Origin: Minisyncoccota bacterium
GTDB taxonomy: Bacteria; Patescibacteriota; Minisyncoccia; Phycocordibacterales; Phycocordibacteraceae
Assembly: GCA_035627655.1 (NCBI GenBank)
Contig: DASPLI010000001.1
Location: forward strand, 398,217-462,216
Direction: 5' to 3'
DNA: 64,000 nt
Positions 4,981 through 55,361 of this stretch are shown here, one piece after another. The position numbers and the translations under genes are program-made. How positions within the stretch are numbered: position 1 is the first letter of the stretch; each line of letters begins with the position of its first letter. Below the pieces are notes generated by a model. That model saw nothing but the letters and a program-made list of their open reading frames with translations, ran no database searches and was not told where the DNA came from.

Positions 4981-5490
4981 ATGCGGAGCAGCACGGACCA
5001 GGCGGCATTCCTCGAGGCGTACGACCAGTACGCCGATACCATCTTTCGCCTGTGCTACGGCAAGACGGGGAATCGTGAAGAGGCCAAGGATATGGCCCAG
5101 GAGGTGTTTGTCCGTGTCTGGGAGCGGCTCGGGAAGGAGGGTCAGGAAATTGAGAATTTGCGCGCGTTTCTCTTTACGGTCGCACGCAACCTCATCAAGG
5201 ACTACTACAAAAAGAAGAAGCCTATCCTTGAGCGCGACCTTCCCGAAGGGGCCATGGAAGCGATGCCGGTTGAAGGAGATCATGTCCTTCAGAGCGAGAC
5301 GAAGCTCGCCCTGAAAGCTCTCCAAGAACTTTCCGACCCGTATCGCGAAGCGCTCACGCTCCATCTCGTCGAGGGACTGCCGATCGGCGAGATTGCGAAG
5401 CTGCTCGGCGAGCGGCCGAACACCATTTCAGTCCGGGTAAAGCGTGGCATTGAGAAGGTGCGCGTCACGCTCAAAATAGACACACTATGA
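4981..5490 (+). CDS. RNA polymerase sigma-70 family ECF sigma factor
   Basis: 169 aa with a region-2 helix (DMAQEVFVRVWERL) and a region-4 HTH (GLPIGEIAKLLGERPNTISVRVKRG). Overlaps the downstream gene by 4 nt (ATGA). Confidence 0.8.
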   Translation: MRSSTDQAAFLEAYDQYADTIFRLCYGKTGNREEAKDMAQEVFVRVWERLGKEGQEIENLRAFLFTVARNLIKDYYKKKKPILERDLPEGAMEAMPVEGDHVLQSETKLALKALQELSDPYREALTLHLVEGLPIGEIAKLLGERPNTISVRVKRGIEKVRVTLKIDTL

Positions 5491-6629
5491 AAGATATAAA
5501 AAACATTTTCATACAAGCACGCCAGGACCTCGAGCTTACGCCGGAGGAGCGTTCGCATATGCGAAGCGAGATCATGCGTGCCATGCATACGCCGGAAACC
5601 GTGCTCGTCGCCGTTCCGTCGCCGTTTGTCTTTTTGTTCAAGCCAGCATATGCGCTTGCTGCGCTCATGCTAGTGATCGTAGTTGGCGGCGGTTCGGCTG
5701 CGGCTGCAGCAGAAGAAGCGCTCCCGGGAGATACGCTCTACGGCATCAAGCTTGCGGTGAACGAGCGACTTGAACGCGCAGTTGCCGTAACGCCAGAAGC
5801 GCGCGCAACCGTGGAAGTGCGTCAGGCACAGGAACGCTTGCAGGAAGTTGAGCTTCTTGCGGCGGTCGGTGACGTTGAAGAAACGACGCTCGATGAGGCT
5901 GCAGCAAAGGTGGAAGAGCATATTGCGCGCGTCGATGAGGTTGCACAGGAATTGCTTGAAGAGGGGGATGAGACCGCGGCAGATGCGGTGCATGCTAAGC
6001 TCACCGCCGCGCTTGCAACGCACGCAGACATTCTCCATGCGCAGTCTGAAGATGCAGACGAGGATGAGCAGCGAAGCCTGCGCCTTCTGGCGCTTACGGT
6101 TCGCAACGCTGCAGGCCAGGCGCTTGAAGCGCAGGACGAAGCCATTCCGCGTGCTGACCAGGACGAAGAGCGTTCGGAACGGCTTGCGACCGCGCGCAAG
6201 GAAAGCGTTGAGCGCAGCATGGAGAAGCTTGCTGAAGGTTTGCGCGATGACGGCATTGCGCCGGAGAGTCAGGAAGAATTGTCTGCCGAGTATCTTGAGC
6301 TTGAGGGGGAGATGGCAGAAGCGCTCGCATTTTATGAATCAGGCGAGTTCCGCCAGGCGGCAAATGCGTACGAAAAGATTGATGCACGTGCCTCACGCAC
6401 CCTAATCCTCTTCGCGTCTGCCAAGCGCATCGAGGAACATACCGATAAGGAAGTATTGATCACGCTTGAGAAGATAGTGCCGGTTGCTGCAACAGAAGAG
6501 GCAGCACCCATGCTTATGATGGAAGCGGCAACCTTTGATACCCGCATGATGAAGGCTCCAGAGGAAGATGAGCCGGAAATGCGAAGGCAGGAGTTCCGGT
6601 TCCGCGTGAGGGATCGAGACCAAGACTAG
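5487..6629 (+). CDS. putative anti-sigma factor, single TM, long Glu/Ala-rich coiled-coil extracytoplasmic domain
   Basis: 380 aa, translationally coupled to the ECF sigma gene. Short cytoplasmic N-terminus, then TM helix YALAALMLVIVVGGG, then a highly acidic helical domain. Confidence 0.5.
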   Translation: MKDIKNIFIQARQDLELTPEERSHMRSEIMRAMHTPETVLVAVPSPFVFLFKPAYALAALMLVIVVGGGSAAAAAEEALPGDTLYGIKLAVNERLERAVAVTPEARATVEVRQAQERLQEVELLAAVGDVEETTLDEAAAKVEEHIARVDEVAQELLEEGDETAADAVHAKLTAALATHADILHAQSEDADEDEQRSLRLLALTVRNAAGQALEAQDEAIPRADQDEERSERLATARKESVERSMEKLAEGLRDDGIAPESQEELSAEYLELEGEMAEALAFYESGEFRQAANAYEKIDARASRTLILFASAKRIEEHTDKEVLITLEKIVPVAATEEAAPMLMMEAATFDTRMMKAPEEDEPEMRRQEFRFRVRDRDQD

Positions 6630-6690: not shown

Positions 6691-7062
6691 CTAGGGAGTG
6701 ATTTGCCGGCTCGACCACAGCAGCACGGACGCTGAGGCGCCGAGCATGAGCGCATAGAGCACGTTCGGCAGAGCCATGCCGCCGACCGGATTGACGAGCA
6801 GTACGCTGCTAAACGCAAGCAGCACCAGTGCCGCGATCCCGAGCGGGATCGCATCGGTGGTGTTGAGCGAGAAGGCGAGCGCGATGAATCCGGTCAGACC
6901 GCCGGCTGCAGCAAGCACGCCGATAGCGTACATGACATGCTCCGGCTCGACGCCGATAGCGAAGAGCCAGTCGAAGGGGCCGATCGGTCCGAAGAATACG
7001 AACACCCCGGTGAGCGCAGCTGCCAAACCAATCACGAAGAGAACAAACTTCAAAAAACCCAT
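6691..7062 (-). CDS. small integral membrane protein (three or four TM helices)
   Basis: 123 aa, entirely hydrophobic helices. Confidence 0.4.
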   Translation of the reverse strand: MGFLKFVLFVIGLAAALTGVFVFFGPIGPFDWLFAIGVEPEHVMYAIGVLAAAGGLTGFIALAFSLNTTDAIPLGIAALVLLAFSSVLLVNPVGGMALPNVLYALMLGASASVLLWSSRQITP

Positions 7063-7142
7063 CTGGATTGCTCCGTCTATGAGTATGACCCCATCCCAAC
7101 ACGGGTGGGCTGGATATAACTATACGATACTAACTATTTCTG

Positions 7143-10100
7143 TCAACTAAGCCGCACGTATCGGTCTTTGACCGCTTTCCCAGGATGACGGTAGTAGAGG
7201 ACAGGGATAAGGATGAGGGTGAGCACCATAGACCAGGCAAGGCCGAACATGATGGCGAAGGCCAGGGGACCCCAGATTTCAGAGGCAAACGAGAGCGGGA
7301 TCATACCAACGACGGTTGTGATGGTGGTGAGGACAATCGGACGGAAGCGCGAGGAAGCTGCTTCGATCACTACTTCTTCAAGCGAATGGTCCGGCTGTTC
7401 GCGTCCAATACGCGCGATCGAGTCCATGAGAATGATCGCGTGGTTGATGATGACGCCGGCAAGCGCGATCACGCCGAGCATCGACGGGAATGAGAGCGGA
7501 GCGCCGGTAATCATCAGGCCGACAAGCACGCCGATAAGGGAAAGCGGAATGATGGAAAGCAGGTAGAACGAGTGGCGGAACGAGTTGAACTCAAGCACGA
7601 GAATACAAAGCATGAGCGCTGCACCTGCAAGCAGGGCAATACCCATTTCCGCAAATGATTTATTGACGTCCTCGCTCTCGCCGCCCACTTTGAGAGCAAC
7701 GCCTTCTGGGAGTCCGGCTTCGCGGACGCGCGTCTGGAGATCCGCAGAAATCTGCAGCGCGTTTGCGCCTGCTGCCACGTCGCTTGAGACGGTCGCGATG
7801 CGCTCGCCGTCTTCGTGGCGGATAACGCTCGCTGCCGGCTCATACGTGATCGTTGCGATAGAGGACAGCGGCACGAATCCGCGAGTGCCCGGGATAAGGA
7901 GCGCACGCACCGCATCAATCGTTGCGTGTGTCGTTTGCGACGGATCAGCGTAGGCGGCATTGAGATCAAGCTTCGTGCGAATCTCAATGTCCTGCTCTCC
8001 GGAGCGAATTGAGGCAGCCTTGGTGCTATAAAGTGCGCCGCGCAATATTTCAGACACGCTTGCCGGTGAGACGCCAAGCGATGCAGCCTTTGCGCGGTCA
8101 AGCGTCACGACAAATTCCGGCGCGTCGTTTCGCGTCGAGGTGGTGACGTTTACCGCTCCTGGCATGTCCGCGAGAATACGCGCTGCCCCTTCTGCCGCTT
8201 CGGTAAGCGATGCCATATCTTCGCCGCTAAAGGTAAGCGAGATTGGCGTACCAGACGGCGGGCCACCTGCGGGTTCTGAGACGCGAAGCGTTGCTGAGGT
8301 GATATCGGCAAGGCGTTCGCGCAACTGTGCAACCACTTCCGAGCTTGGCTTATGGTCATCGGCGAGGTTCACGGTGATGTTTGCCGTCTTGCTGCCGCTA
8401 CCGCCCGAGGCGCCGAAGTAGCTTGCTGCGCCGACTTCAGATACGAAGGAGGCAATCTGCGGATCTCCATAAAGGCGCTCTTCAATCTCACGCACAGCAA
8501 GGTCGGTCGCTTCAAGCGTGGATCCCTGCTGCTTTTCTATATCGATATAGATAAAATCGGAATTTTCACCCGGGAAGAAGATCGTTTTCACTGCGCCGGT
8601 TGCCGGGAGAATGATTGCAAGCACGAAGAGACCTACCATGCTCCAGATGAAGCGGTTGGCTTTCTTTGGATTGTCCAAGAGGTCCTTGAGGAATCGCTCG
8701 TACCAAGCACGTGCCTTGCGGTTGTATTCCTCCTGCAGGTGCTGGGTTTTGGAGTGCGACGGGCGGATGATGTACATCGCAAATAGCGGCACGAGACCAA
8801 GCGCGACGAAGATGGAGGCAAGCAACACGAAAATAACCGTAAACGGAATAGATGCGACGAACTTGCCGACAATGCCGGAGAGGAAGAAGAGCGGGACGAA
8901 TACCGCGATTGTGGTGAAGGTGCCGGCAGTCAGCGGCGTTGCGTACTCGCGAATGGCGTTGATGGCCGCAGCGCGCTTGTCGCCGGTTGCGATAAAGCGG
9001 GTATGGATCGCCTCAACAACTACGATGCCGGTATCCACCAAGATGCCGATTGCGAGAATCAGGGAGAAGAGGGAAATGAAGTTGATGGTATTGCCGGAGG
9101 CATAGATGCCCATGAAGGCAATAAGGAACGAGAGCGGAATGGAAATTGCTGCGGCGATTGATTCGCGCCAGCCGATCGTTGCGATGAGCATCAGCATCAC
9201 GAGCGCAACCGTCTCAAAGCCAACGCGCGAGAGCTCGGTGAGATCATGCTCGACGTACTCCGCCGCGTCGTAGGAGATTACCGTCTGCGTACCGGCAAGA
9301 ACGGAGGACTCCAGTTCCTTGAGCTTTTCTTTTACCGCGTTGCCTGTATCGACCACATTGCCGCCGCGGCTCTTGAAGACGGAAAGGGTGAGGGCTGGCT
9401 GTGAGGGTGCGCCATTTACGGAGACGCGCGAGAAGCTGGTCGGATCTGAGAGGCCATCTACCACGTCTGCAACATCGCCGACGCGAATCGGGGTGCCGTT
9501 TGGTCCGGCAATCGGAACGTTGCGGACGTCATCGGTGTCCGTGATACCGGCATCAAGGCGAACGGCGTACGTAATGTCGTCAACGACGATCGTGCCAGCC
9601 GGGCTTCCCGTTCCCGCGCTCATAAGGGCGCGCGTTACGTCTCCAAGCGAAAGGCCATACTGACGCAGGCGCTCCTGGCGTACGATGACCTGCACTTGGC
9701 GATCGCGAACGCCCGAGAGGCGCACTTCGGAAATTCCGGCGAGCCGTTCGATCTCGTCTTTCACCTCAATGCCGACCGCAGTCAGCTCCGCAGGAGAGAA
9801 GTCGCCTGAAATAGAAGCGATCATGATCGGCTGATCTGCAAAGTTCACGTCAGTCACGATCGGGTCTTCCGCATCTTCCGGCAGCTCGCCCTGCACCTTC
9901 TCAACTTCGTCCTTCAAGAGCTGGATGGACGCTTCGATATCTGCGGAAGCGGAAAATTCTACTGAAATAGAGGACACGCCCTCGCCGGACGTCGAAGTCA
10001 CTTTCGATACGTTTTCAACGCCAAGAATGCGGTCCTCGATCTTGTCGGTCACTAGGCGTTCAACGTCCTCGCTTGAAGCGCCCGGGAGAATCGTTGTGAC

Positions 10101-13576: not shown

Positions 13577-13608
13577 AAAAACGCCGCTGGAACATTCCGG
13601 CGGCGTTT
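13577..13608. terminator. bidirectional intrinsic terminator
   Basis: aaaaacgccgc-tggaacattcc-ggcggcgttt sits between the convergent methyltransferase (+) and trmB-like (-) genes. Confidence 0.65.
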
Positions 13609-14374
13609 AGTATTTCTCTCCCGCTTCCCACAACGCCGAGAAGAGCGCGGTGAGCATTGCGTGCGCTTCTTTTGAGGTGATGAGCACCGCAGAGGGTTTT
13701 TTGAACGAGGAGATGATCGCTACTTTATCGTCAAAGAGAATCAGCATCGATTTGAATTTTCCTTCCATAGACGCAGGCATGAAGCGGGGGTTTCGCAGCT
13801 CCTGGTCTTCTGCGGAAAGTCGGCGGTCGCTGTCTTTGCGCTCCCACAGTGTTCGAGAAACGATGCCGCGTTGTTTACGCGTCTTGAGGTAGTAGGCGGC
13901 ATAAGCAGGATCAAAGTCGCGCAGGAAGTTATCAACGGGCGCGATGATGTCCCAAGCGCGCGAGCGGCAATACAGCGCCTCATCAATGACTGCCTTCACG
14001 CCTTCGATGCCGTCATACTGTGCCGCTTCCACCTGCTTGCCAGCGGCGCTTGGCGAGAGTTCAGACAAAAGAGGAATGAGTGCGTCGATTCCCGCTTCGC
14101 GCTTTTTCAACTCTTCGCGTTCGTTTCGGACCGTTTCTCGCAAATGGTCCGGAGACGCCATAGAGAAACGAATCTTTCCGTTTTCTTTTCGCTCGGCTAC
14201 CAGTCCCTTTTGCGAGAGGGTAGAGAGCGCGTGATACACGGTCGGACGCTTGATAAGCGTTTCTCGCGCCAGTTCCTGTGCGGTCAGCGGACCGTTTTTA
14301 AGGCCAGCCAGATAGATCCGGCTTTCGGTTGTCGTGAGTCCCAAGGCCTCAAGCGAGGACTGCAGGTTCTTCAT
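13607..14374 (-). CDS. TrmB-family transcriptional regulator (winged HTH, sugar-responsive family)
   Basis: 255 aa. N-terminal wHTH LGLTTTESRIYLAGLKNGPLTAQELARETLIKRPTVYHALSTLSQKGLV, plus a C-terminal effector-binding-like domain. Confidence 0.7.
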   Translation of the reverse strand: MKNLQSSLEALGLTTTESRIYLAGLKNGPLTAQELARETLIKRPTVYHALSTLSQKGLVAERKENGKIRFSMASPDHLRETVRNEREELKKREAGIDALIPLLSELSPSAAGKQVEAAQYDGIEGVKAVIDEALYCRSRAWDIIAPVDNFLRDFDPAYAAYYLKTRKQRGIVSRTLWERKDSDRRLSAEDQELRNPRFMPASMEGKFKSMLILFDDKVAIISSFKKPSAVLITSKEAHAMLTALFSALWEAGEKY

Positions 14375-14459
14375 TGCTGGGGAGGATACGGCAGAACGGG
14401 TTATATGTCAATGATGGATCATAATGAAATAGCAAGTAAATACACTCTATTTATAAGCT

Positions 14460-14479
14460 GTTTATATATGATTATAAAC
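14460..14479. promoter_or_regulatory. candidate TrmB operator: inverted repeat GTTTATA-N6-TATAAAC in the divergent promoter region
   Basis: 7-6-7 palindrome gtttatatatgattataaac inside the AT-rich 180-nt region between the trmB-like gene (-) and the CoaB-like/aldolase gene (+). A TTGACA at 14493 follows. Confidence 0.4.
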
Positions 14480-14555
14480 ATGCTTTGACAGTATTCCTTG
14501 CACGCTGCATGCTCGTTCACAGAGCAAGGACGCTCTTTATAGAAGGAGATACGGT

Positions 14556-15815
14556 ATGGACCGCAAACAAGTCCACGTTGTCGGCGGCGGCACGGTCAGT
14601 CATGTTCGCCCGCATCTGGCGCTGTCTGCTCCCGCGTATGGCGGGACGGCGCGCAAGCTTGCAGAACTTTGCAAGGCGCACGACGAGACCATGGGCGTGC
14701 AACTGCACCTCACCAAGATGGCTGACCACACGAGCCGGGTTGAAACGAATGACGACCTGCGCGAGTTTGCGCTCGCGCTTGTCGACGATCCGAGAACGAA
14801 GATCGTTTTCTGGAATCCCGCGGTCGTCGATTTCGACGGTCACGTCGGCAACGGCGTTGAAAAGAAACGCCTCCGGACGACACTTCCTGACGGGAAGACC
14901 GTCGGCTACTACGACATGGTCATCACGCCGACCGACAAGATCGTTTCGATCTTGCGGCAAGGCAGTGAGGGGCGCACGCCGCGGAAGGACATCTTCCTGG
15001 TTGCGTTTAAAGCGACCGCCGGCGAAACCGCTGAAGAGCAGTATCGCCAAGGTCTCGACATGTTGAAACGGGTGAGTGCGAACCTCGTGCTCGCTAACGA
15101 CGTCGAAACAGGACGCAACATGATCATCACGCCGGAGGAAGCTTGCTACAGCGATACCTTCGACCGTGATGCGGCACTTCGCGAACTGGTCGAGATGGCC
15201 TACCTCCGCTCGCACCTCACCTTTACGAGGAGCACGGTGGTCGCAGGCGAGCCGGTGCCATGGGATTCGTCCTTGGTGCCTGCAACGCTGCGTACGGTCG
15301 TCGACTACTGCATCGGCAAGAGCGCGTACAAGCGCGTTCGCGGCGTCACTGCCGGCCACTTTGCGGTAAAGCTCGACGAGCAAACCTTCCTCACCTCACG
15401 CCGGAAGACGGACTTCAACGATATGAAGAACGTCGGACTCGTGAAAGTGAAGACCGATGGCCCTGATTCGGTGATTGCGTACGGCAGCCGCCCCTCTGTG
15501 GGCGGACAGTCGCAGCGGATCGTCTTCAAGGAACATCCGGACACGGATTGCATCGTGCACTTCCACTGTCCGAAGAAGGAAGGATCCCCGGTGCCGACCG
15601 TCTCGCAGCGCGAGTACGAGTGCGGCAGCCACGAGTGCGGCAAGAACACCTCGCGTGGTCTTACGCGCTTCGGGAATCTGTACGCCGTCTACCTCGACCA
15701 TCACGGCCCGAACATCGTCTTCTCGAAAGACATTGATCCTCAGGAAGTTATCGACTTCATCGAGGAGCACTTCGACCTTTCGCTGAAGACCGGTGGCTAT
15801 CAGGTCGCTGCGTAA
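14556..15815 (+). CDS. fusion protein: N-terminal CoaB-like (DFP/phosphopantothenate-cysteine ligase fold) domain plus C-terminal class II aldolase/adducin-like domain
   Basis: RBS ggagatacggt before the ATG. Three N-terminal stretches align to conserved E. coli Dfp CoaB-half blocks. First, VHVVGGGTVSHVRPHLALSAPAYGGTARKLAE aligns to [32 protein letters not shown]. Second, KIVFWNPAVVDFDGHV aligns to NIFIGCAAVADYRA. Third, FLVAFKATAGETAEEQYRQGLDMLKRVSANLVLANDV aligns to [32 protein letters not shown]. The C-terminal region (GHFAVKLDEQTFLTS, SRPSVGGQSQRIVFKEHPDTDCIVHFHCP) fits the class II aldolase pattern GNxSxR / FLITPSG / KPSSE / AVVHTHS. Confidence 0.6.
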   Translation: MDRKQVHVVGGGTVSHVRPHLALSAPAYGGTARKLAELCKAHDETMGVQLHLTKMADHTSRVETNDDLREFALALVDDPRTKIVFWNPAVVDFDGHVGNGVEKKRLRTTLPDGKTVGYYDMVITPTDKIVSILRQGSEGRTPRKDIFLVAFKATAGETAEEQYRQGLDMLKRVSANLVLANDVETGRNMIITPEEACYSDTFDRDAALRELVEMAYLRSHLTFTRSTVVAGEPVPWDSSLVPATLRTVVDYCIGKSAYKRVRGVTAGHFAVKLDEQTFLTSRRKTDFNDMKNVGLVKVKTDGPDSVIAYGSRPSVGGQSQRIVFKEHPDTDCIVHFHCPKKEGSPVPTVSQREYECGSHECGKNTSRGLTRFGNLYAVYLDHHGPNIVFSKDIDPQEVIDFIEEHFDLSLKTGGYQVAA

Positions 15816-32649: not shown

Positions 32650-34536
32650 TTAGACGCCGATCAGTACCGGGATCACCATCGGTGCTTTATTGGTCCTCGA
32701 GAAGAGGAAGCCAGCCATGGTGTCGGTAAGCTGATTCTTCACGTAGTCGAGATCGACTGGGTTCATGCCGCGGGTCGTGTCTTCGACGGTCTTCTTGATG
32801 AGAAGACGAGCCTGATTCAACAGGTCCTGCGATTCGCGCAGATACACGAAGCCGCGGGAAATGATGTCCGGCGACTTCCGGAGCTTGCCGGTCTTCAGGT
32901 GCACGGTTGCAATGATGACGAACATGCCGTCCTTCGCGAGCGCCTGACGATCGCGGATCACTACCTCCTGCATATCGCCGATAGCAAAGCCGTCAACGAT
33001 AAGCGGGGAAGATGGAACCTTCTCCTTGTGGATGTTGAGGGTCTTGCCTTCGATCATGTCGATCACCATGCCGTTATCGGCAACGATGATTTCTTCGCGC
33101 GGGCGCCCGGCCTGCTCGACTGCCTTTGCGTGGCATGAGGTCATCGAGTAGTAGCCGTAGGCAGGCATGAAGAACTTCGCGCCGACCTGCTGGTTGATCC
33201 AGACGAGCTCGCCTGAGTTTCCGTGTCCGGTCGAGTGCACGTCGGATGAGCGGTAGTGGATTAGGGTGACGCCGTTGCGGTAGAGGTTGTCCTTGAGGCG
33301 CTGCACGTTGATCTCGTTGCCGGGAATCACGGACGAGGAGAGCACGATCGTGTCGCGATTGGTAAGCGTGATCGACTTGTGCTGCTTGGTTGCGATGCGC
33401 ATAAGCGCGGCAAATTCCTCGCCCTGCGCGCCGGTCGCAAGAATTACGATCTTGTCGGCAGGGTAGTCGCCGATTTCCTGTGCGGGAATAACGGTCGACT
33501 TATCAACCTTCAAGAGACCGGTCTTCTGTGCGATCTCAAGGTTCGTGCGGATCGAGCGGCCTTCAAGCACGACCTTCTTACCAAGCTTCTCGGAAACCTG
33601 GATGATGTGCACCATGCGCTCAAACTGAGACGCAAAGGTGCCGATAATGAGACGTCCCGAGACCGTCTTGATGATGTCTTCAAGCGTCTGGTGGACTTTC
33701 TTTTCCGGTACGGAGAAGCCGTCGCGTTCCGCATTCGTGGAGTCGGCGATGAAGATAAGGTTGTTGTCCTTACCGATCTCGCCCCACTTCTTCGCTTCAT
33801 GCTCGGCAGGAACCCCATTCTCGTGGTCGAGCTTGAGGTCGCCGGTTGCAACGACGTTGCCCCACGGCGTCTCAATTGAGATGCCCATGGAATCTGGAAT
33901 CGAGTGGGTCACCGGGAAGAACTTCACGCGATGCGATCCGATGGTGACCGTTGAGTTTGGCTCAACGACGCGCAGATCGAGTTTCGGCATCTCAGGATAT
34001 TCTTCTTGGCGCTTGGCGATCATGACCGCAGAAAGGTTCTGGGTGTAGATCGGCGGATTGCCGAAGCGGCCCATTAGAAATGGAATGCCGCCGATATGGT
34101 CGAGGTGGCCGTGCGTGATGAAGACTGCGCGGACGCGATCCTGGTTCACCTCAAGATACTTCGTGTTCGGGAGTACGTAGTCGATACCCGGGTTGGAGTC
34201 TTCTGATACGAACTGGAAGCCCGCATCGCAGACGAAGATGTCATTGCCGCTTTCAACGGCGAACATGTTGCGACCCACTTCCTCAACGCCACCAAGTGGA
34301 ATGACGCGCACCGTCTTTTCATCGACGGGTGCAGGGAAGTAGTCGGCACGAGGCTTCGGAGCCGCCGTATTGCTTGGCGGGCGGCGCATGCCGCGATCCC
34401 GTCCGCCGCGACCGCGACCGCGTGAGCGATCACGAGAGCCGCGTCCTGGACGGCGATCTCCATCACGCCGTGGTGGGCGTGAGCTGGGGGCTGGCCGCGA
34501 CATCGGGGCCGGAGCCGGAGCTGGTGCTGGAGTCAT
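32650..34536 (-). CDS. rnj: ribonuclease J (metallo-beta-lactamase/beta-CASP) with RG-rich N-terminal extension
   Basis: HGHLDHIGG motif, beta-CASP and C-terminal domains. The N-terminal roughly 55 aa are MTPAPAPAPAPMSRPAPSSRPPRRDGDRRPGRGSRDRSRGRGRGGRDRGMRRPP. Confidence 0.9.
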   Translation of the reverse strand: MTPAPAPAPAPMSRPAPSSRPPRRDGDRRPGRGSRDRSRGRGRGGRDRGMRRPPSNTAAPKPRADYFPAPVDEKTVRVIPLGGVEEVGRNMFAVESGNDIFVCDAGFQFVSEDSNPGIDYVLPNTKYLEVNQDRVRAVFITHGHLDHIGGIPFLMGRFGNPPIYTQNLSAVMIAKRQEEYPEMPKLDLRVVEPNSTVTIGSHRVKFFPVTHSIPDSMGISIETPWGNVVATGDLKLDHENGVPAEHEAKKWGEIGKDNNLIFIADSTNAERDGFSVPEKKVHQTLEDIIKTVSGRLIIGTFASQFERMVHIIQVSEKLGKKVVLEGRSIRTNLEIAQKTGLLKVDKSTVIPAQEIGDYPADKIVILATGAQGEEFAALMRIATKQHKSITLTNRDTIVLSSSVIPGNEINVQRLKDNLYRNGVTLIHYRSSDVHSTGHGNSGELVWINQQVGAKFFMPAYGYYSMTSCHAKAVEQAGRPREEIIVADNGMVIDMIEGKTLNIHKEKVPSSPLIVDGFAIGDMQEVVIRDRQALAKDGMFVIIATVHLKTGKLRKSPDIISRGFVYLRESQDLLNQARLLIKKTVEDTTRGMNPVDLDYVKNQLTDTMAGFLFSRTNKAPMVIPVLIGV

Positions 34537-36342: not shown

Positions 36343-36573
36343 CTAGATGAGGAACCCGGCAATAGCGGTAAGTACGAAGAGTACGGCGATCACTATGGTC
36401 GCCTGGAAAAGGAATTTTTCAGCGCCCCGGCGCTTGTAAAACGTCGAAGCGAAGTTGTCGCCTCCAAAAGCTCCTCCAAGGGATGCGCCGCGGTTTTGCA
36501 GCACAATACCTGCGATGAGGAGAAGGGAGAGGACGATCTCTGCGTACGGCAATATTGCCTTGAGTGTCTCCAT
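36343..36573 (-). CDS. secG: preprotein translocase subunit SecG
   Basis: Start at the ATG at 36573 (METLKAILPYAEIVLSLLLIAGIVLQNRGASLGGAFGG...). Two TM helices, 76 aa. The track ORF extends 18 codons upstream. Confidence 0.7.
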   Translation of the reverse strand: METLKAILPYAEIVLSLLLIAGIVLQNRGASLGGAFGGDNFASTFYKRRGAEKFLFQATIVIAVLFVLTAIAGFLI

Positions 36574-36626
36574 CTGTAGCCGGAAGCATAGCATACCGGG
36601 GTCAGGGGAGGCAATTACCCCACACA

Positions 36627-36654
36627 TTGACTTATATAAATAAGTATGTATACT
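36627..36654 (+). promoter_or_regulatory. sigma-70-like promoter TTGACT-16-TATACT upstream of paralog A
   Basis: Hexamers at 36627-36632 and 36649-36654. A 5-prime UTR hairpin ttcggaacg/cgttccgga follows. Confidence 0.45.
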
Positions 36655-36704
36655 ATTACGGGTTTCGGAACGACCGTTCCGGACGGAAACAGAGGGAAAA
36701 GAGA

Positions 36705-37001
36705 ATGGCCGAGTTGATACTCATCGGTGTCTTGGGCTTCGTCGGAGGACTCTCGTTCTTCGCGATGGTCGAGGCAATGGATGACATCTCGTTTGCAAAA
36801 GGAATCCTGCTCGCCGCGCTCATGCTATGCGCGGTCGGCGCCGCCGCTTCGCTGACGACACTCCATATCGTCAACGGCGGAGCAGTGCACACCTTCCTGC
36901 TCCCGATCCTCACTATGATCGCGGGCTTCATCCTCAACGCCACCGTGTTCACCAATATCGCGTTCTGGCTCAAGCATCGCGCCCCCTGGGCGCGCTACTA
37001 A
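36705..37001 (+). CDS. small membrane protein, paralog A of a tandem three-gene family (98 aa, three TM helices)
   Basis: ATG at 36705 (MAELILIGVLGFVGGLSFFAMVEA...). The track starts at 36564. Confidence 0.5.
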   Translation: MAELILIGVLGFVGGLSFFAMVEAMDDISFAKGILLAALMLCAVGAAASLTTLHIVNGGAVHTFLLPILTMIAGFILNATVFTNIAFWLKHRAPWARY

Positions 37002-37023
37002 GGCTTCTGACGCACAACCCGCA

Positions 37024-37054
37024 AAACGGGCGCCCCCAAGGCGCCCGTTTCTTT
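37024..37054 (+). terminator. intrinsic terminator after paralog A
   Basis: aaacgggcgcc-cccaag-gcgcccgttt followed by cttt. Confidence 0.6.
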
Positions 37055-37066
37055 ATCCCTACGCAC

Positions 37067-37095
37067 TTGACAGCATATTATAAATATGGTAGCAT
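37067..37095 (+). promoter_or_regulatory. promoter candidate (TTGACA-17-TAGCAT) with near-palindrome CATAT-N5-ATATG upstream of paralog B
   Basis: TTGACA at 37067-37072. Palindrome at 37074-37088. AT-rich run catatata. Confidence 0.35.
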
Positions 37096-37147
37096 ATATA
37101 CAGCCTGCCCCAGGATAAAGGGGGTGTTCCAACCAGAGGAGGGTCTC

Positions 37148-37465
37148 ATGACTCTTGCTGAAATTGTTGCTTCTTGGCCAATCCTGACGGCGTTCGCCAT
37201 CTCCGGCGGCGCCCTGCTTGTGACCGGCATTCGCCTGCTGACGCATCCGCCCGATGTCATCTGGGCCCACCTTGGGTGGTTCCTGATCGGTGTCGTGGCG
37301 GCGGTCGTCGGCGGCGTGCAGATGGACACGTTCTATCAATCGTTCGGCCTGTTCGCGATCGGCCTCTCGGTCGCCGCGTTCATGGCTGGCATGATCGTGA
37401 TGGTCGTGTTCGGTCTCATCTGGGACGTCGCCGCGGAATTTGTCGCGGACCGTCTGCCAGGCTAG
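37148..37465 (+). CDS. small membrane protein, paralog B (105 aa, three TM helices)
   Basis: GAGGAGGG with a 5-nt spacer before the ATG (MTLAEIVASWPILTAFAISGGALLVTG...). Confidence 0.5.
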   Translation: MTLAEIVASWPILTAFAISGGALLVTGIRLLTHPPDVIWAHLGWFLIGVVAAVVGGVQMDTFYQSFGLFAIGLSVAAFMAGMIVMVVFGLIWDVAAEFVADRLPG

Positions 37466-37496
37466 TCGGCTAAAACGGCAACGTATGGAATAACAA

Positions 37497-37530
37497 GGCG
37501 CCCCAGACTACCGGGGCGCCTTTTCGTATT
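37497..37530 (+). terminator. intrinsic terminator after paralog B; the same 24-nt hairpin recurs inverted at 41303-41326
   Basis: ggcgccccag-actac-cggggcgcc followed by ttttcgtattt. Confidence 0.65.
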
Positions 37531-37560
37531 TGACATATATACGATACTGTGGTATCGTAT
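37530..37560 (+). promoter_or_regulatory. promoter candidate TTGACA-17-TATCGT overlapping the perfect palindrome ATACGATAC-TGTG-GTATCGTAT, upstream of paralog C
   Basis: TTGACA at 37530-37535. 9-4-9 inverted repeat at 37539-37560. Confidence 0.4.
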
Positions 37561-37608
37561 TACCGACGTCCCAAGCTATGGGGACCTGTCCTTCAGAAGG
37601 GGAAATAC

Positions 37609-37920
37609 ATGACTCCTGAAAGTATGCAGGTGTTTGCTGTCGTAGGCGGTGCTGTCGCGACCATCCATGGGTGGTTTGCTCTGACGACGTTTTTCCCTTC
37701 AACGGGGAAATCGGCGCCGGGGCTCGCGGGAATGTTCACCATCGCGGGCATCTTCGTGATGCTCGCGGCACTCAATACGACGAAAGAGCTTTCGGACGCG
37801 CCCATGTACATGATTATGGGCGCGCTCATCGGCTCGGCGATCTTCGTCGCGATCTATGCGGCTGTGCACAGCGCATCGCCATATTCGCGTCGCGAACGTC
37901 GCCCGCGCAAGCGTAACTAA
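37609..37920 (+). CDS. small membrane protein, paralog C (103 aa, three TM helices, basic C-terminal tail)
   Basis: ATG at 37609 (MTPESMQVFAVVGGAVATIHGWFALTT...). The track starts at 37549. Confidence 0.5.
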   Translation: MTPESMQVFAVVGGAVATIHGWFALTTFFPSTGKSAPGLAGMFTIAGIFVMLAALNTTKELSDAPMYMIMGALIGSAIFVAIYAAVHSASPYSRRERRPRKRN

Positions 37921-38047
37921 CTGCAGAAGGAGAGAAGCGGCTGTCCGAACCCCGGGCGGCCGCTTTTTGCTTTCCGCTACATTTGATACACTCCATCCGC
38001 TACCGGCGGGCAGCCGGATTATTTAGAAATTTTACGTCTCGATATCT

Positions 38048-39989
<1,942 letters not shown>

Positions 39990-40003: not shown

Positions 40004-40050
40004 AAGGGCCGGGATCCTGTGTAGGATTCCCGGCCCTTTGCCGTTTTATT
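40004..40050. terminator. bidirectional intrinsic terminator after groEL
   Basis: aagggccgggatcc-tgtgt-aggattcccggccctt followed by tgccgttttatt. Confidence 0.8.
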
Positions 40051-40654
40051 GCTGCGGCCCTTCCACTTCGCCCGTCTGGAGACTGGCGACCTGGACGGTC
40101 GGAGCTGTTGCCACTTGTTCAGGCGACTGCGCCGGTTGCGGCGGCTGGACGAAGGTTGCATTGCCGACGCGAGCCATCGCTTGCGCCCGCATGTACGCTT
40201 CCTCGATGCCCGGGATGTTCATCCGCGCGTACTCGACAGCCGTCTGTCGCATGATCGGGTCGTTTTGAAACGCGCCGGCGATCACGCGAATGATCTCAAG
40301 ATCTTGGCAGAGCTTGTCGATCCGTCCGCCGCCATAGCTGGCGCCGACGTAGATCATACTGAAGCCGCCGCCGCGTGTGACCACGCACTGTGCCGTTGGT
40401 TGCGGGACTTCTCCCGATACCATCGGCGCCGAGTGAATCGTCAGCGTGTCCGGAGACTCTGGAGCCTCGAAGGTTGTGATGACGTCCCCCGTTGCAGCGA
40501 ATGCGCCTGATTCAGAGTCGGCCGCAGCATCTGCGTCCGCTTCGGCTTCAGCCGCGGTATCGCCGCCGATCACGAGTTGCGCGTGAGCGTCGGGAGTGAA
40601 CATAAGCGCGCCGAGCATCAAGGATGCCGACACGAAGAATGCAGTTCGTTTCAT
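40046..40654 (-). CDS. secreted hypothetical protein (signal peptide, Ala/Asp-rich region; GC-elevated islet)
   Basis: Signal peptide MKRTAFFVSASLMLGALMFTPDAHA. Confidence 0.45.
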   Translation of the reverse strand: MKRTAFFVSASLMLGALMFTPDAHAQLVIGGDTAAEAEADADAAADSESGAFAATGDVITTFEAPESPDTLTIHSAPMVSGEVPQPTAQCVVTRGGGFSMIYVGASYGGGRIDKLCQDLEIIRVIAGAFQNDPIMRQTAVEYARMNIPGIEEAYMRAQAMARVGNATFVQPPQPAQSPEQVATAPTVQVASLQTGEVEGPQQ

Positions 40655-40734
40655 TTCCGTACCTCATAGATGTTGTGGAAGCGAAATGGGCCGCGGCGTT
40701 GCCGCCGCGGCCCTCGTCGACGTAGTCCGAAGTT

Positions 40735-41106
40735 TTAGCGGCGGCGAGTGCGCGAGCGCGCTCGCTGGTTGCCGGTATATTCGGAGCCGCCTTCGACGCC
40801 GGCGTCAGCATTGCCATACGCGCCGGAGACGTTCACGCCGCTCGCCGAACCGTAGCCGTACGTATTGACGATGGCGTTGTTGCGGTTGACATAGGCGTTG
40901 GCGCCGTTTTGGACGTCGGACGATTGATACCCGTAGGAGCCGGCGATGCTGCCCGAGCCCGGGCCTGCGGCCGATCCTTGGGTCTGTCCACCAGATACGC
41001 TGGAGTTGGCGCCGGCTTGTCCCGTCCATTGCGATTGCGCTGAAGCAGGAGTGGCCAGAGCGGCCACGGCGAGAGCCGCGCAAGCGGCGAACAACATACG
41101 TTTCAT
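40735..41106 (-). CDS. secreted Gly/Ser/Asn/Tyr-rich low-complexity protein
   Basis: Start at the ATG at 41106 (MKRMLFAACAALAVAALATPASA signal peptide). Mature part rich in G, S, N, Y, Q. Basic C-terminal tail RARSRTRRR. Confidence 0.45.
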   Translation of the reverse strand: MKRMLFAACAALAVAALATPASAQSQWTGQAGANSSVSGGQTQGSAAGPGSGSIAGSYGYQSSDVQNGANAYVNRNNAIVNTYGYGSASGVNVSGAYGNADAGVEGGSEYTGNQRARSRTRRR

Positions 41107-41302
41107 GTGGTTTGTCCTTTGTGACAACGTGACCATTCCCCCTGGTCACTATGGGGATTCGCAGATCCACCCCGAGGAATTTCGAGATAGGCCTGCCAAT
41201 AGGGTTAAAAAGAGCAACACCAGGACGCAAAAAAAGCGCCGTGGCGCGTTGATTCAACCTAACCCGGGTATGGAAAAGTGTCAATAGCGGGGAAACGCAA
41301 AC

Positions 41303-41326
41303 GGCGCCCCGGTAGTCTGGGGCGCC
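41303..41326 (-). terminator. hairpin ggcgccccggtagtctggggcgcc, exact reverse complement of the 37497-37520 hairpin; terminator for the 41345-41626 gene
   Basis: Identical 24-nt inverted-repeat element found at two loci. Confidence 0.5.
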
Positions 41327-41344
41327 GAAAGAATGTCGTGTTGA

Positions 41345-41626
41345 TTAGAAGTCCTTGAACGCTGGCTCGTCCGCGGCGCCGGAGCGATTGGCGGCGTAGT
41401 CGAGGCTGATCTGGCGATCGGCGTTCCGGAGGATCTGGTTGGCGATGACGGCTGCGATGAACGGCACGACAAGGCCAGCGATGATGATCCACCAGGAGAC
41501 GCCGATGACGTTGAACGCAGCGAGACCTGCGACAACGGCCGCGACCAGGAAGACGTCGACCGCGTGATTGCTCACGAACGACGAGACGGGGCAACGAACA
41601 CGGGCTTCTTCAAACATCACACTCAT
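41345..41626 (-). CDS. small membrane protein (two TM helices)
   Basis: 93 aa. TM helices VDVFLVAAVVAGLAAFNVIGVSWWIIIAGLVVPFIAAVIA. Confidence 0.4.
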   Translation of the reverse strand: MSVMFEEARVRCPVSSFVSNHAVDVFLVAAVVAGLAAFNVIGVSWWIIIAGLVVPFIAAVIANQILRNADRQISLDYAANRSGAADEPAFKDF

Positions 41627-41757
41627 GGAATGAACTCCAGTTGCGGTTGTGGCCTTTCGGCCGGACCGATACTACTGTACCATAAAGTATATAAAAAGTC
41701 AATAGTCTGGCCTGATATGCAAAAGGCGACGTACCGCGAGGGTACGCCGCCCGTTGT

Positions 41758-42021
41758 TTAGTAGCGCAGCTGCCGTCTGGCTGGTCGTCGTCCGAAGACA
41801 AACCACCAGAACCACACGAGCGGCGTGGCAATGACTGAAGCGATCGGTCCGAGAATGCCAAGCACCATCGTGCCAGCTTGCACAAAGAGTTCGGCGATAG
41901 CGATTGCCATCACCGCCACAATCTCCATGTAGATGATGAACAGCGCAGCGCCGAGGATGGCGCCGATGATCACCAGGATCGGGAGCAGAGTCGATAGGCT
42001 GGTCAGGTCGTAATGGGACAC
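41758..42021 (-). CDS. small membrane protein (two TM helices)
   Basis: GTG start with AAAGGAGGG 10 nt upstream. A hairpin terminator lies downstream on the minus strand at about 41720-41750. Confidence 0.4.
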   Translation of the reverse strand: MSHYDLTSLSTLLPILVIIGAILGAALFIIYMEIVAVMAIAIAELFVQAGTMVLGILGPIASVIATPLVWFWWFVFGRRPARRQLRY

Positions 42022-43624: not shown

Positions 43625-43714
43625 GGAGGCGTCGCATAGTGGTCTAGTGCACCGCCTTGGAAAGGCGGCAGGCTCGAAAGGGTCTCGAGAGTTCGAATCT
43701 CTCCGCCTCCGCCA
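43625..43714 (+). tRNA. tRNA-Ser (anticodon GGA), long variable arm, CCA encoded
   Basis: Acceptor ggaggcg/cgcctcc. Anticodon stem ccgcc/ggcgg with loop ttGGAaa. T-arm gagag-ttcgaat-ctctc. Discriminator G followed by CCA. Confidence 0.8.
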
Positions 43715-45632: not shown

Positions 45633-45945
45633 AGACCAGCGTAGGCGATCGCTCTGACAATTTGTCAGGGAGGAAAGTCCGAACACAGGCAGGAAACTGC
45701 AGCAGGGTAGCGGGTAACCCCCGTCCGCCGCGAGGCGCGAGGTGCGAACAGTGACGTCGCGAGCGAAAGCAGTGCGACATCCCCTGAGGATGAACTTCAC
45801 TGAAAGGTGAAGATGAAACGGCAAAATCCTTACCTCTGTGCAAGGCCGTGCCCCAGATCTGGGGAGCGCCGCTCGAGCTCTGCAGCAATGCAGGGCCCAG
45901 ATAGATGATCGTCCACGACAGAATTCGGCTTACCGCGCTGGTCTA
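45633..45945 (+). ncRNA. rnpB: RNase P RNA (rnpB), bacterial type, compact (about 313 nt)
   Basis: P1 formed by agaccagcg (5-prime) and cgctggtct (3-prime). P4 strands GGAGGAAAGTCCGAACACAG and ACAGAATTCGGCTTACCG. GGGTAACCCCC-type loop. A terminator hairpin follows immediately. Listed minus-strand ORFs 45460-45888 and 45477-45824 are spurious. Confidence 0.75.
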
Positions 45946-45950
45946 CAAAC

Positions 45951-54831: not shown

Positions 54832-54903
54832 GCCCTCGTAGTTCAATGGATAGAACATCTCACTCCTAACGAGATAATGTAGGTTCGATTCCTACCGAGG
54901 GCA
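54832..54903 (+). tRNA. tRNA-Arg (anticodon CCT), CCA not encoded
   Basis: Acceptor gccctcg/cgagggc. D-arm gttc-aatggata-gaac. Anticodon loop containing tCCTa. T-arm gtagg-ttcgatt-cctac. Discriminator A. Confidence 0.75.
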
Positions 54904-55010
54904 CAAAACTTGACTCTTAGTATAAAACGTTCTATTATACCGTTGTTCTAGGCGACCCGTTCGCGTGGGACACGGTCCTTTTCAACAACCAGCGAACAGA
55001 GAGGTGACGG

Positions 55011-55361
55011 GTGAATATCTACCGCCTGTTGGCAAACGCCACATTCTGGTTCCATATGCTTTGGGTGGCAATTCTGCTCGCCGGCCTTCCGTTGAGCGCC
55101 TTCTATCCGTGGTACCGACCAATCCACGGCATAGTAGTGCTGACGACGGTCGCGTCGCAGATTATTTGGCTCGGATGCCCGCTCACCATGATCGAGTGCG
55201 CGTTCCGTGCTAAATACGACCCCAGCACTTCCTTCACGGGATCGTTCGTAACCTACTATCTCAAAAAGTGGTTCAACGTGACGGTCCCCGCAAAGGTTGT
55301 GGTTATTCAGCTGCTTGTGATGTTGGCGCTTTCCATCGTCTTCGTCTTAAAGACCAGCTGA
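55011..55361 (+). CDS. DUF2784 family membrane protein
   Basis: GTG start after GAGAGG. MNIYRLLANATFWFHMLWVAILLAGLP is typical of DUF2784. Three or four TM helices. Confidence 0.5.
   Translation: MNIYRLLANATFWFHMLWVAILLAGLPLSAFYPWYRPIHGIVVLTTVASQIIWLGCPLTMIECAFRAKYDPSTSFTGSFVTYYLKKWFNVTVPAKVVVIQLLVMLALSIVFVLKTS

Follow-up and report, generated by a model that had tools for sequence, protein, structure and literature searches.

Class I holins, of which lambda S is the standard example, are proteins of ~100 amino acids (aa) with three transmembrane (TM) helices, an N-out/C-in orientation, a basic C-terminal tail and dual translation starts. Type I toxins are usually under 60 aa, with one helix and an overlapping antisense RNA. 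The GlsB/YeaQ/YmgE proteins (PF04226) are small, Gly-rich, multi-helix membrane proteins that are associated with stress and encoded by stand-alone genes. Most protein families enriched in bacteria of the candidate phyla radiation (CPR) are poorly annotated, one or more TM helices occur in 76 of 106 of them, and proteins that are small and evolve fast are missed by clustering (Meheust et al. 2019, PMC6744442). Here we describe three genes for small membrane proteins, A, B and C, which stand in a row between secG and groES in a 64-kb window (the whole stretch of DNA that was analysed) from a CPR bacterium. We conclude that they are probably separate single-gene units for lineage-specific three-helix membrane proteins, fast-evolving accessories of the CPR envelope.

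Three gene units between secG and groES

All three genes lie on the plus strand. Gene A (36705-37001) encodes a protein of 98 aa, gene B (37148-37465) one of 105 aa and gene C (37609-37920) one of 103 aa. Each protein has three hydrophobic helices; the C-terminal tail is weakly basic in A, acidic in B and strongly basic (RRERRPRKRN) in C. A sequence scan finds three hydrophobic segments in each product, in agreement with a preliminary description of this stretch, which had listed three similar-sized three-TM open reading frames (ORFs) at these coordinates. The helices are Gly/Ala-rich, and the sequences show small-xxx-small motifs. An AlphaFold single-sequence model of C places helices at residues 3-28, 36-56 and 64-88, with low confidence (pLDDT, the predicted local distance difference test, 66.6). 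Gene C also has an additional in-frame ATG at codon 6, giving it the paired starts M1 and M6, and the B and C genes both begin ATGACTC(T/C)TG.

We scored codon usage with a log-odds measure trained on 15 long genes of the window. The values per codon were 0.39 for A, 0.42 for B and 0.29 for C, at the level of groES (0.38) and secG (0.43), and for each gene the annotated frame scored highest of the six. G+C content at the third and second codon positions (GC3 and GC2) was 0.69-0.80 and 0.41-0.52, respectively, across the three genes, and the pattern over GC1, GC2 and GC3 is gene-like. A purine-rich, Shine-Dalgarno-like site precedes each start codon. In a strain variant (L018/L019), gene C carries two synonymous changes and one R-to-H change.

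Each ORF is framed by its own predicted transcription signals. Promoter P1 (36627-36654, plus strand) reads TTGACT-16-TATACT, P2 (37067-37095, plus strand) TTGACA-17-TAGCAT and P3 (37530-37558, plus strand) TTGACA-17-TATCGT, the latter two with a TG-n extended -10. Each scores 10/12, and together they are the top three sigma-70 matches in the surrounding 7 kb, where seven sigma-70-like sites were observed against 3.1 +/- 1.8 in shuffled sequence. P3 is invariant in both strain variants, L018 and L019. On the minus strand, no promoter-like site was found in 36600-37950. The -35 hexamers start 440 and 463 bp apart, each unit measures about 440-460 bp, and the predicted leaders between promoter and start codon (36660-36704, 37101-37147 and 37564-37608, plus strand) are about 44-46 nt long and end in the Shine-Dalgarno site.

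Downstream, every gene is followed by a strong hairpin and a T-run on the plus strand. Terminator A (37024-37058) comprises a hairpin at 37024-37050 with a perfect 11-bp stem and a 5-nt loop (-21.0 kcal/mol, z = -5.0); terminator B (37495-37530) a hairpin at 37495-37522 with a 10-bp stem and an 8-nt loop (-21.5 kcal/mol, z = -5.1); and terminator C (37932-37977) a hairpin at 37932-37968 with a stem of ~16 bp that includes G-U pairs and a 5-nt loop (-28.0 kcal/mol, z = -4.4). None of 200 shuffles was as stable as the hairpin of A, B or C. The T-run of terminator B abuts the -35 hexamer of P3. At the level of sequence, the earlier claim that each gene has its own promoter and terminator is supported by near-consensus sigma-70 sites and strong intrinsic hairpins with T-runs.

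Part of terminator B recurs in the window. The 24-nt hairpin GGCGCCCCAGACTACCGGGGCGCC is present as identical copies at 37497-37520 (plus strand, after B) and 41303-41326 (minus strand, after a 93-aa gene), and the chance expectation for such a second copy is zero. The shared hairpin could stem from recombination between units or from a dispersed terminator repeat. An Rfam search of the region returned sub-threshold chance matches on the terminators only. The leaders of this promoter class (41-66 nt) each contain a short 5'-proximal hairpin with an energy no better than that of shuffles (z +1.2 to -1.6); a conserved RNA element in the 5' untranslated region was rejected on these values, and the hairpins may merely be an effect of G+C content.

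Similarity among A, B and C

The three genes share an architecture, with three hydrophobic segments in each protein and the same order of promoter, leader, ORF and terminator in each unit. Since the layout also occurs at unrelated genes for small membrane proteins in other parts of the window, it has no diagnostic value for paralogy. BLASTP gave E = 0.8 for A/B and E = 5.7 for A/C. For B/C it gave E = 0.002 over 39 residues, out of register, with TM2-TM3 of B set against TM1-TM2 of C. When 13 small membrane proteins, drawn from the window and its relatives, were compared as a panel, the B/C match dropped to E = 0.026, and similar scores arose between clearly different members of the panel. A Smith-Waterman comparison of B and C reached z = 6.2 against simple shuffles, which overrate matches between transmembrane segments. 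With hhalign, a profile of A and its orthologue (described below) matched B and C at a probability under 1%. DNA alignments of whole units lay mostly near the shuffle level (z = 1.8-3.0).

The trio had been introduced as "paralogous" and "near-identical", with the proviso that an absence of significant mutual similarity would refute this. Pairwise alignment yielded no significant in-register similarity, and "near-identical" is wrong. Paralogy of A, B and C is backed by no test that we applied to their sequences. Ancient paralogy, if present, would go undetected because these small proteins evolve fast.

The secG-groES slot in related genomes

We compared the locus with ten genomes from GTDB whose GroES is 54-76% identical to that of the window; nine keep the order RNase J, SBP_bac_5 protein and secG on one side and groES and groEL on the other. 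The gap between secG and groES, 1477 bp with three units in the window, varies widely among them. In L009 it measures 1142 bp and holds two units, for proteins of 115 and 112 aa with 3-4 hydrophobic segments each; both units have a TTGACT promoter, a TGG-extended -10, a Shine-Dalgarno site and a GC-hairpin terminator. In L014 (1436 bp) the opposite strand carries two small 3-TM genes, for 94 and 87 aa, that have promoters of the same class, and a 103-aa ORF lies on the other strand from those two. In L013 (540 bp) there is one 86-aa ORF, whose three hydrophobic segments were judged by eye. L012 (~830 bp) has two unrelated non-membrane genes, L011 (~720 bp) nothing obvious, and the gaps of L008, L010, L015 and L017 (130-250 bp) are empty. 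Across the nine relatives, then, four have an empty slot, three have between one and three different ORFs for small membrane proteins in it, and two have other genes or nothing obvious. The suggestion that these are variable small-membrane-protein cassettes, for which a comparison of copy number among related genomes had been proposed, holds up, because the slot contains 0, 1, 2 or 3 such ORFs depending on the relative.

No ORF of the relatives matched B or C. Among the three genes, only A has a positional orthologue, and a weak one, in one relative: A and the first L009 gene (5055-5402) align in register with 32% identity over 75 aa (E = 7e-4). The core of P1 is conserved at the orthologous position in L009, where the first 32 nt are alike (local DNA score z = 5.8). 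For the same pair of genomes GroES is 76% identical, which indicates a divergence of the small proteins that is several times as fast as that of core proteins.

The two L009 units resemble each other at their starts. By eye, they share a ribosome-binding region, GAAAAGGA(G/A)GATC..ATGGATCT (5030-5110 and 5535-5615), and a common N-terminus, MDL(S/T)..F..(I/F)P(F/Y), and the remainders of the two proteins are dissimilar. The sequences hint at a tandem duplication in L009 followed by fast divergence.

On the right flank of the slot, most relatives have a CTATACT...ACAC element 40-110 nt upstream of groES, with or without inserts, and the window has a diverged form of it, CTACATT...ACAC (region 37975-38050). 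The start context of groES, TATGGCAA, is conserved in most relatives (the regions of L009, L010, L013 and L015 were compared). Neither an obvious Shine-Dalgarno site nor a TTGACA-type promoter is found at groES in the window or in these four, and no repeat resembling CIRCE (controlling inverted repeat of chaperone expression) was seen near groES on reading the sequence. That the groES element is kept regardless of the insert fits inserts that are independent of groES expression.

Palindromes at the promoters

The preliminary description gave each unit a palindrome and detailed those at the second and third promoters; all three promoters do carry one. The P1 palindrome (36630-36645) is ACTTAT-ATAA-ATAAGT, a 6-4-6 repeat that overlaps the promoter. 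The P2 palindrome (37074-37088), in the spacer, is CATATT-ATA-AATATG, a 6-3-6 repeat longer than the 5-5-5 repeat first reported. At P3, the perfect 9-4-9 palindrome ATACGATAC-TGTG-GTATCGTAT (37539-37560, unstranded) covers part of the spacer and the -10 and is a candidate operator. The three have no common half-site.

We gauged their significance by shuffling each promoter's own bases, with AT-richness as the sole cause under test. Palindromes of the observed length arose in 17% of shuffles for P1 (p ~0.17), in 11% for P2 (p ~0.11) and in 0.1% for P3 (p ~0.001), the only one of the three beyond chance. The P1 palindrome is not retained in the orthologous L009 promoter, and a strain single-nucleotide polymorphism (A to T at 37077) disrupts that of P2. 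The P1 and P2 palindromes are best treated as chance, and operator control of all three units, as had been proposed, does not follow.

A motif search for the palindromes elsewhere had also been suggested. It recovered the P3 half-site GTATCGTAT once more in the window, at 7122-7130, within another promoter of the same class, and found no second full copy of the P3 palindrome in the 64 kb. A scan of metagenome contigs gave 105 matches to the P3 palindrome, of which none came from this lineage and all had unrelated contexts. A regulon built on the P3 palindrome gained no support from this evidence: one extra half-site in the window, and metagenome matches exclusively in unrelated contexts. As an operator, the P3 palindrome is at best a plausible prediction.

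The same unit layout elsewhere

Sites of the form TTGAC-N-(16-18)-TAnnnT occur 11 times in the window, and in six of them the spacer is at least 65% A+T, a filter chosen after seeing the data. Each of the six AT-rich-spacer sites is followed, after 41-66 nt, by an ORF that encodes 93-123 aa and 2-4 hydrophobic segments. P1, P2 and P3 make up half of them. The others precede an orphan ORF for 123 aa and four hydrophobic segments (6691-7062, minus strand; TTGACA-16-TATAGT at 7146, GC-hairpin terminator), a 93-aa 2-TM ORF (41345-41626, minus strand; consensus promoter at 41702) and a 116-aa DUF2784 protein (55011-55361, plus strand; Pfam E = 5.9e-12), preceded by the promoter TTGACT-17-TATTAT (unit at 54910-55361). 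It is the promoter of the 123-aa ORF (unit 6691-7146) that contains the additional P3 half-site. A GC-rich hairpin follows the ORF in all five units whose downstream sequence was inspected. The link between AT-rich-spacer promoters and small membrane proteins was also seen in L009, L010 and L014.

The same design at three further small membrane-protein genes points to a genomic style and not to a special array. In our assessment, from the sequences compared, the lineage uses this layout as a house style where small envelope proteins are encoded.

The promoter of the DUF2784 gene immediately follows the gene for a tRNA-Arg (54832-54904).

Just beyond groEL, and convergent with it, the minus strand has another row of single-gene units (40046-42021). 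Its members are an 87-aa membrane ORF (41758-42021), the 93-aa 2-TM ORF named above and the genes for two secreted proteins, one Gly/Ser/Asn-rich and ~123 aa long (40735-41104), the other of 202 aa (40046-40654), with hairpin and T-run terminators between units. The proteins of this row had no significant match in Pfam.

Searches for families and homologues

Searches of A, B and C against Pfam, NCBIfam, PHROGs and PADLOC returned nothing above threshold, as foreshadowed by the preliminary description, which could assign no family. Residues 69-87 of C matched PF04226 (Transgly_assoc) at E = 1.3 and 9.8 bits, against a gathering cut-off of 25.3 bits, and neither A nor B had any match to PF04226; membership in this family was rejected for all three. 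In PADLOC, a 2TM effector came up at a non-significant E = 0.048. Comparison by tblastn with 50,697 phage genomes gave nothing for A, B or C at E up to 1, and no sequence in the PDB matched them. When 5.8 billion proteins were searched with word seeding, each retrieved only itself or its own species (A and B themselves only, C the same species only), and an exhaustive phmmer search against 1.84 billion representatives, run with B alone, returned only B. Our literature search turned up neither a class of small, highly expressed membrane proteins described for CPR bacteria nor specific studies of CPR promoters.

The trio had been likened to stress-induced, toxin-like or bacteriocin-immunity-like proteins. 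No toxin, holin, immunity or defence family matched in our searches, and several specific assignments were rejected. A type I toxin-antitoxin system is at odds with proteins of 98-105 aa and three helices, the lack of a minus-strand promoter in 36600-37950 and the lack of an Rfam match. Bacteriocin immunity was discarded for want of precursor or export genes within 6 kb and of a family match. Assignment to a class I holin family or a lysis cassette failed on the absence of any significant PHROG or Pfam match and on the neighbours, which are secG, SBP_bac_5, RNase J and groES/EL.

Neighbourhood and other features of the window

The window comes from a metagenomic contig of 742 kb (ENA ERZ27252484, k141_498263) and has a G+C content of 56%. 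A 12.3-kb stretch identical to it is present in a second metagenomic sample, and the loci L001 and L002 do not differ from the window in sequence. In NCBI, protein A is listed as a hypothetical protein of Candidatus Paceibacterota bacterium (CPR/Patescibacteria).

To the left of the trio, the minus strand carries the genes for RNase J and an SBP_bac_5 protein and secG; rightward on the plus strand, A, B and C are followed by groES and groEL. The left boundary of the slot is secG (36343-36570, minus strand; PF03840, traced across the related loci by tblastn), which is divergent from gene A; the right boundary is groES (38048-38356, plus strand; PF00166), with groEL (PF00118) next. The neighbourhood also includes lemA and the gene for an M48 (HtpX-like) protease. 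Within 6 kb of the trio we found no endolysin, phage, bacteriocin or ATP-binding cassette (ABC) exporter genes.

RNase J (32650-34536, minus strand) has an N-terminal extension that opens with an (Ala-Pro) repeat, TPAPAPAPAP, and continues as ~50-80 aa of Arg/Gly-rich low-complexity sequence; the extension is conserved in L008, L009, L011, L012, L014 and L015. At 4981-6629 (plus strand), the gene for a sigma factor of the extracytoplasmic function type (Sigma70_r2, r4_2) overlaps the start of a gene for a 380-aa DUF5667 membrane protein, which is likely its anti-sigma partner. An AT-rich 8-6-8 palindrome, TGTTTATA-TATGAT-TATAAACA, lies at 14459-14480 in a divergent promoter region between genes for a TrmB-family regulator (13607-14374, minus strand; PF01978, E = 5e-15) and a protein with a DFP/aldolase-II domain (14556-15815); it looks like a candidate autoregulatory operator. 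A class A RNase P RNA (129 bits) is encoded at 45633-45948 (plus strand), and tRNA genes lie at 43625, 52257, 54832 and 55740.

Discussion

The account that we consider probable takes A, B and C as separate single-gene units of a CPR lineage. In sequence, each comprises a near-consensus promoter of the housekeeping (sigma-70) type, whose spacer is AT-rich, followed by a leader, the ORF and a strong intrinsic terminator. The terminators would insulate the units from one another and from groES, and transcription would be strong, largely constitutive and monocistronic. For additional control, the one credible candidate would be a repressor bound to the 9-4-9 palindrome across the -10 of P3. As to their physiological role, judged from composition and context, accessory small CPR envelope proteins would be the most likely assignment, in line with the published view of CPR-specific proteins as largely unannotated and associated with the membrane (PMC6744442). 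The Gly/Ala-rich helices suggest self-association into oligomers or packing onto larger membrane complexes, and the rapid divergence may come from loose constraint or from host or phage pressure.

Several points weigh against this account. The promoter class was linked to small membrane proteins by a post-hoc filter on AT-rich spacers, in a single window of 64 kb and a few relatives. Estimates of promoter strength and of transcription as single-gene units come from consensus matches only. Strain variation amounts to one variant with three substitutions in C, too few for a test of selection. The palindrome arms of the trio, at 6, 6 and 9, exceed those of nine other promoters of the class, at 4 or less; the trio thus stands out by palindrome size, and regulation could be underrated in our account.

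Common ancestry is the main rival to separate units: A, B and C may be true tandem paralogues of one family, duplicated and diverged beyond recognition. We think this unlikely, yet serious enough to keep in view, since the three are alike in size (98-105 aa), three-helix architecture, unit and leader length and layout, B and C share a gene start as well as the weak local match (E = 0.002, Smith-Waterman z = 6.2), and the shared ribosome-binding region and N-terminus of the L009 units suggest duplication within the slot. With A at 32% identity to its own orthologue, against 76% for GroES, older duplicates would escape detection. The alignments themselves argue the other way: no pair aligns significantly in register, the B/C match pairs different helices and fades in a panel where unrelated proteins score comparably, the A profile all but ignores B and C, the DNA of the units stays near shuffle level, and the z score derives from simple shuffles, which flatter TM segments. 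A bolder reading would make the secG-groES slot and a mirror-image array beyond groEL a diversity-generating locus of strongly expressed small envelope proteins. Its members would undergo repeated duplication, replacement and divergence through host-cell or phage interaction of an episymbiotic CPR bacterium, as a miniature variable-surface-protein system in which the 9-4-9 palindrome would individually control one member; we hold this to be improbable.

The remaining rivals assign the genes a regulated, toxic or non-coding nature. A stress or heat-shock module tied to groESL, with dimeric repressors seated on the palindromes and released under stress, would draw on the inverted repeats over the spacer or -10 of all three promoters (the 9-4-9 repeat of P3 at p ~0.001) and on the proximity of groES/groEL, lemA and the M48 (HtpX-like) protease gene. 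It strikes us as quite improbable. Without a common half-site it needs three regulators on a 742-kb contig that is probably most of a small genome; two of the palindromes are within chance, one of them lost in L009 and the other broken by a polymorphism; the nine other promoters of the class have arms of at most 4; the metagenome matches to the P3 palindrome all sit in unrelated contexts; and groES, with no CIRCE-like element seen, has its own upstream element in most relatives. A holin-like or otherwise toxic pore-former, as a lysis remnant, a toxin or a bacteriocin-immunity type, would suit C best, with its 103 aa, three helices, highly basic tail and two in-frame starts, and the non-significant 2TM effector match in PADLOC leans the same way. 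We regard this as very unlikely, given that no significant PHROG, Pfam or PADLOC family emerged, nothing was found in 50,697 phage genomes, codon usage is that of the host chromosome and neither endolysin, phage, bacteriocin nor ABC-exporter genes lie within 6 kb; moreover, an unregulated holin under a near-consensus constitutive promoter would be lethal, and a toxin is not helped by a region lacking an antisense promoter. Least probable of all is that the ORFs are untranslated, the units being non-coding RNAs or the ORFs chance products flanked by sites that resemble promoters and terminators. Lacking homologues, their coding nature cannot be confirmed by conservation, and just three substitutions are at hand, in C. 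Against this stand a frame-specific codon signal equal to that of groES and secG and best of six frames, gene-like GC1/GC2/GC3, Shine-Dalgarno sites at the right distance, regular hydrophobic helices and the way each ORF fills the interval from promoter to terminator; no Rfam family reached threshold, and A has its weak in-register positional orthologue.

For the account of separate units, the main value of the analysis is a correction: the locus holds three orphan autonomous units where regulated, near-identical miniproteins in an array had been proposed. In this lineage, small orphan membrane proteins are flanked by the clearest consensus promoters and terminators, which may be useful as ready-made strong expression parts and flag such proteins as probably abundant. 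Rapid gene turnover could be followed with the secG-groES slot as a marker, or the slot could be used as a neutral site for insertions. Current understanding stays as it is unless expression and function data tie the proteins to an episymbiotic lifestyle.

Comparison with known systems

Gene C resembles class I holins in size, helices, basic tail and paired starts, whereas A, with its weakly basic tail, and B, with its acidic tail, differ from them, and the promoter of C looks constitutive. The trio recalls GlsB/YeaQ/YmgE proteins in size, Gly-richness and stand-alone genes, but its members do not belong to that family. Within the window, the DUF2784 unit (55011-55361) has the same design as the units of A, B and C but its gene belongs to a widespread Pfam family, and the other units of this design do not stand three in a row. 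The CPR-enriched families (PMC6744442) are alike in being small, unannotated and TM-predicted in a reduced CPR genome; they span many genomes, whereas A, B and C are confined to one species, save for the weak orthologue of A. Set beside these systems, the trio is an ordinary, tidy case of fast-evolving orphan genes.

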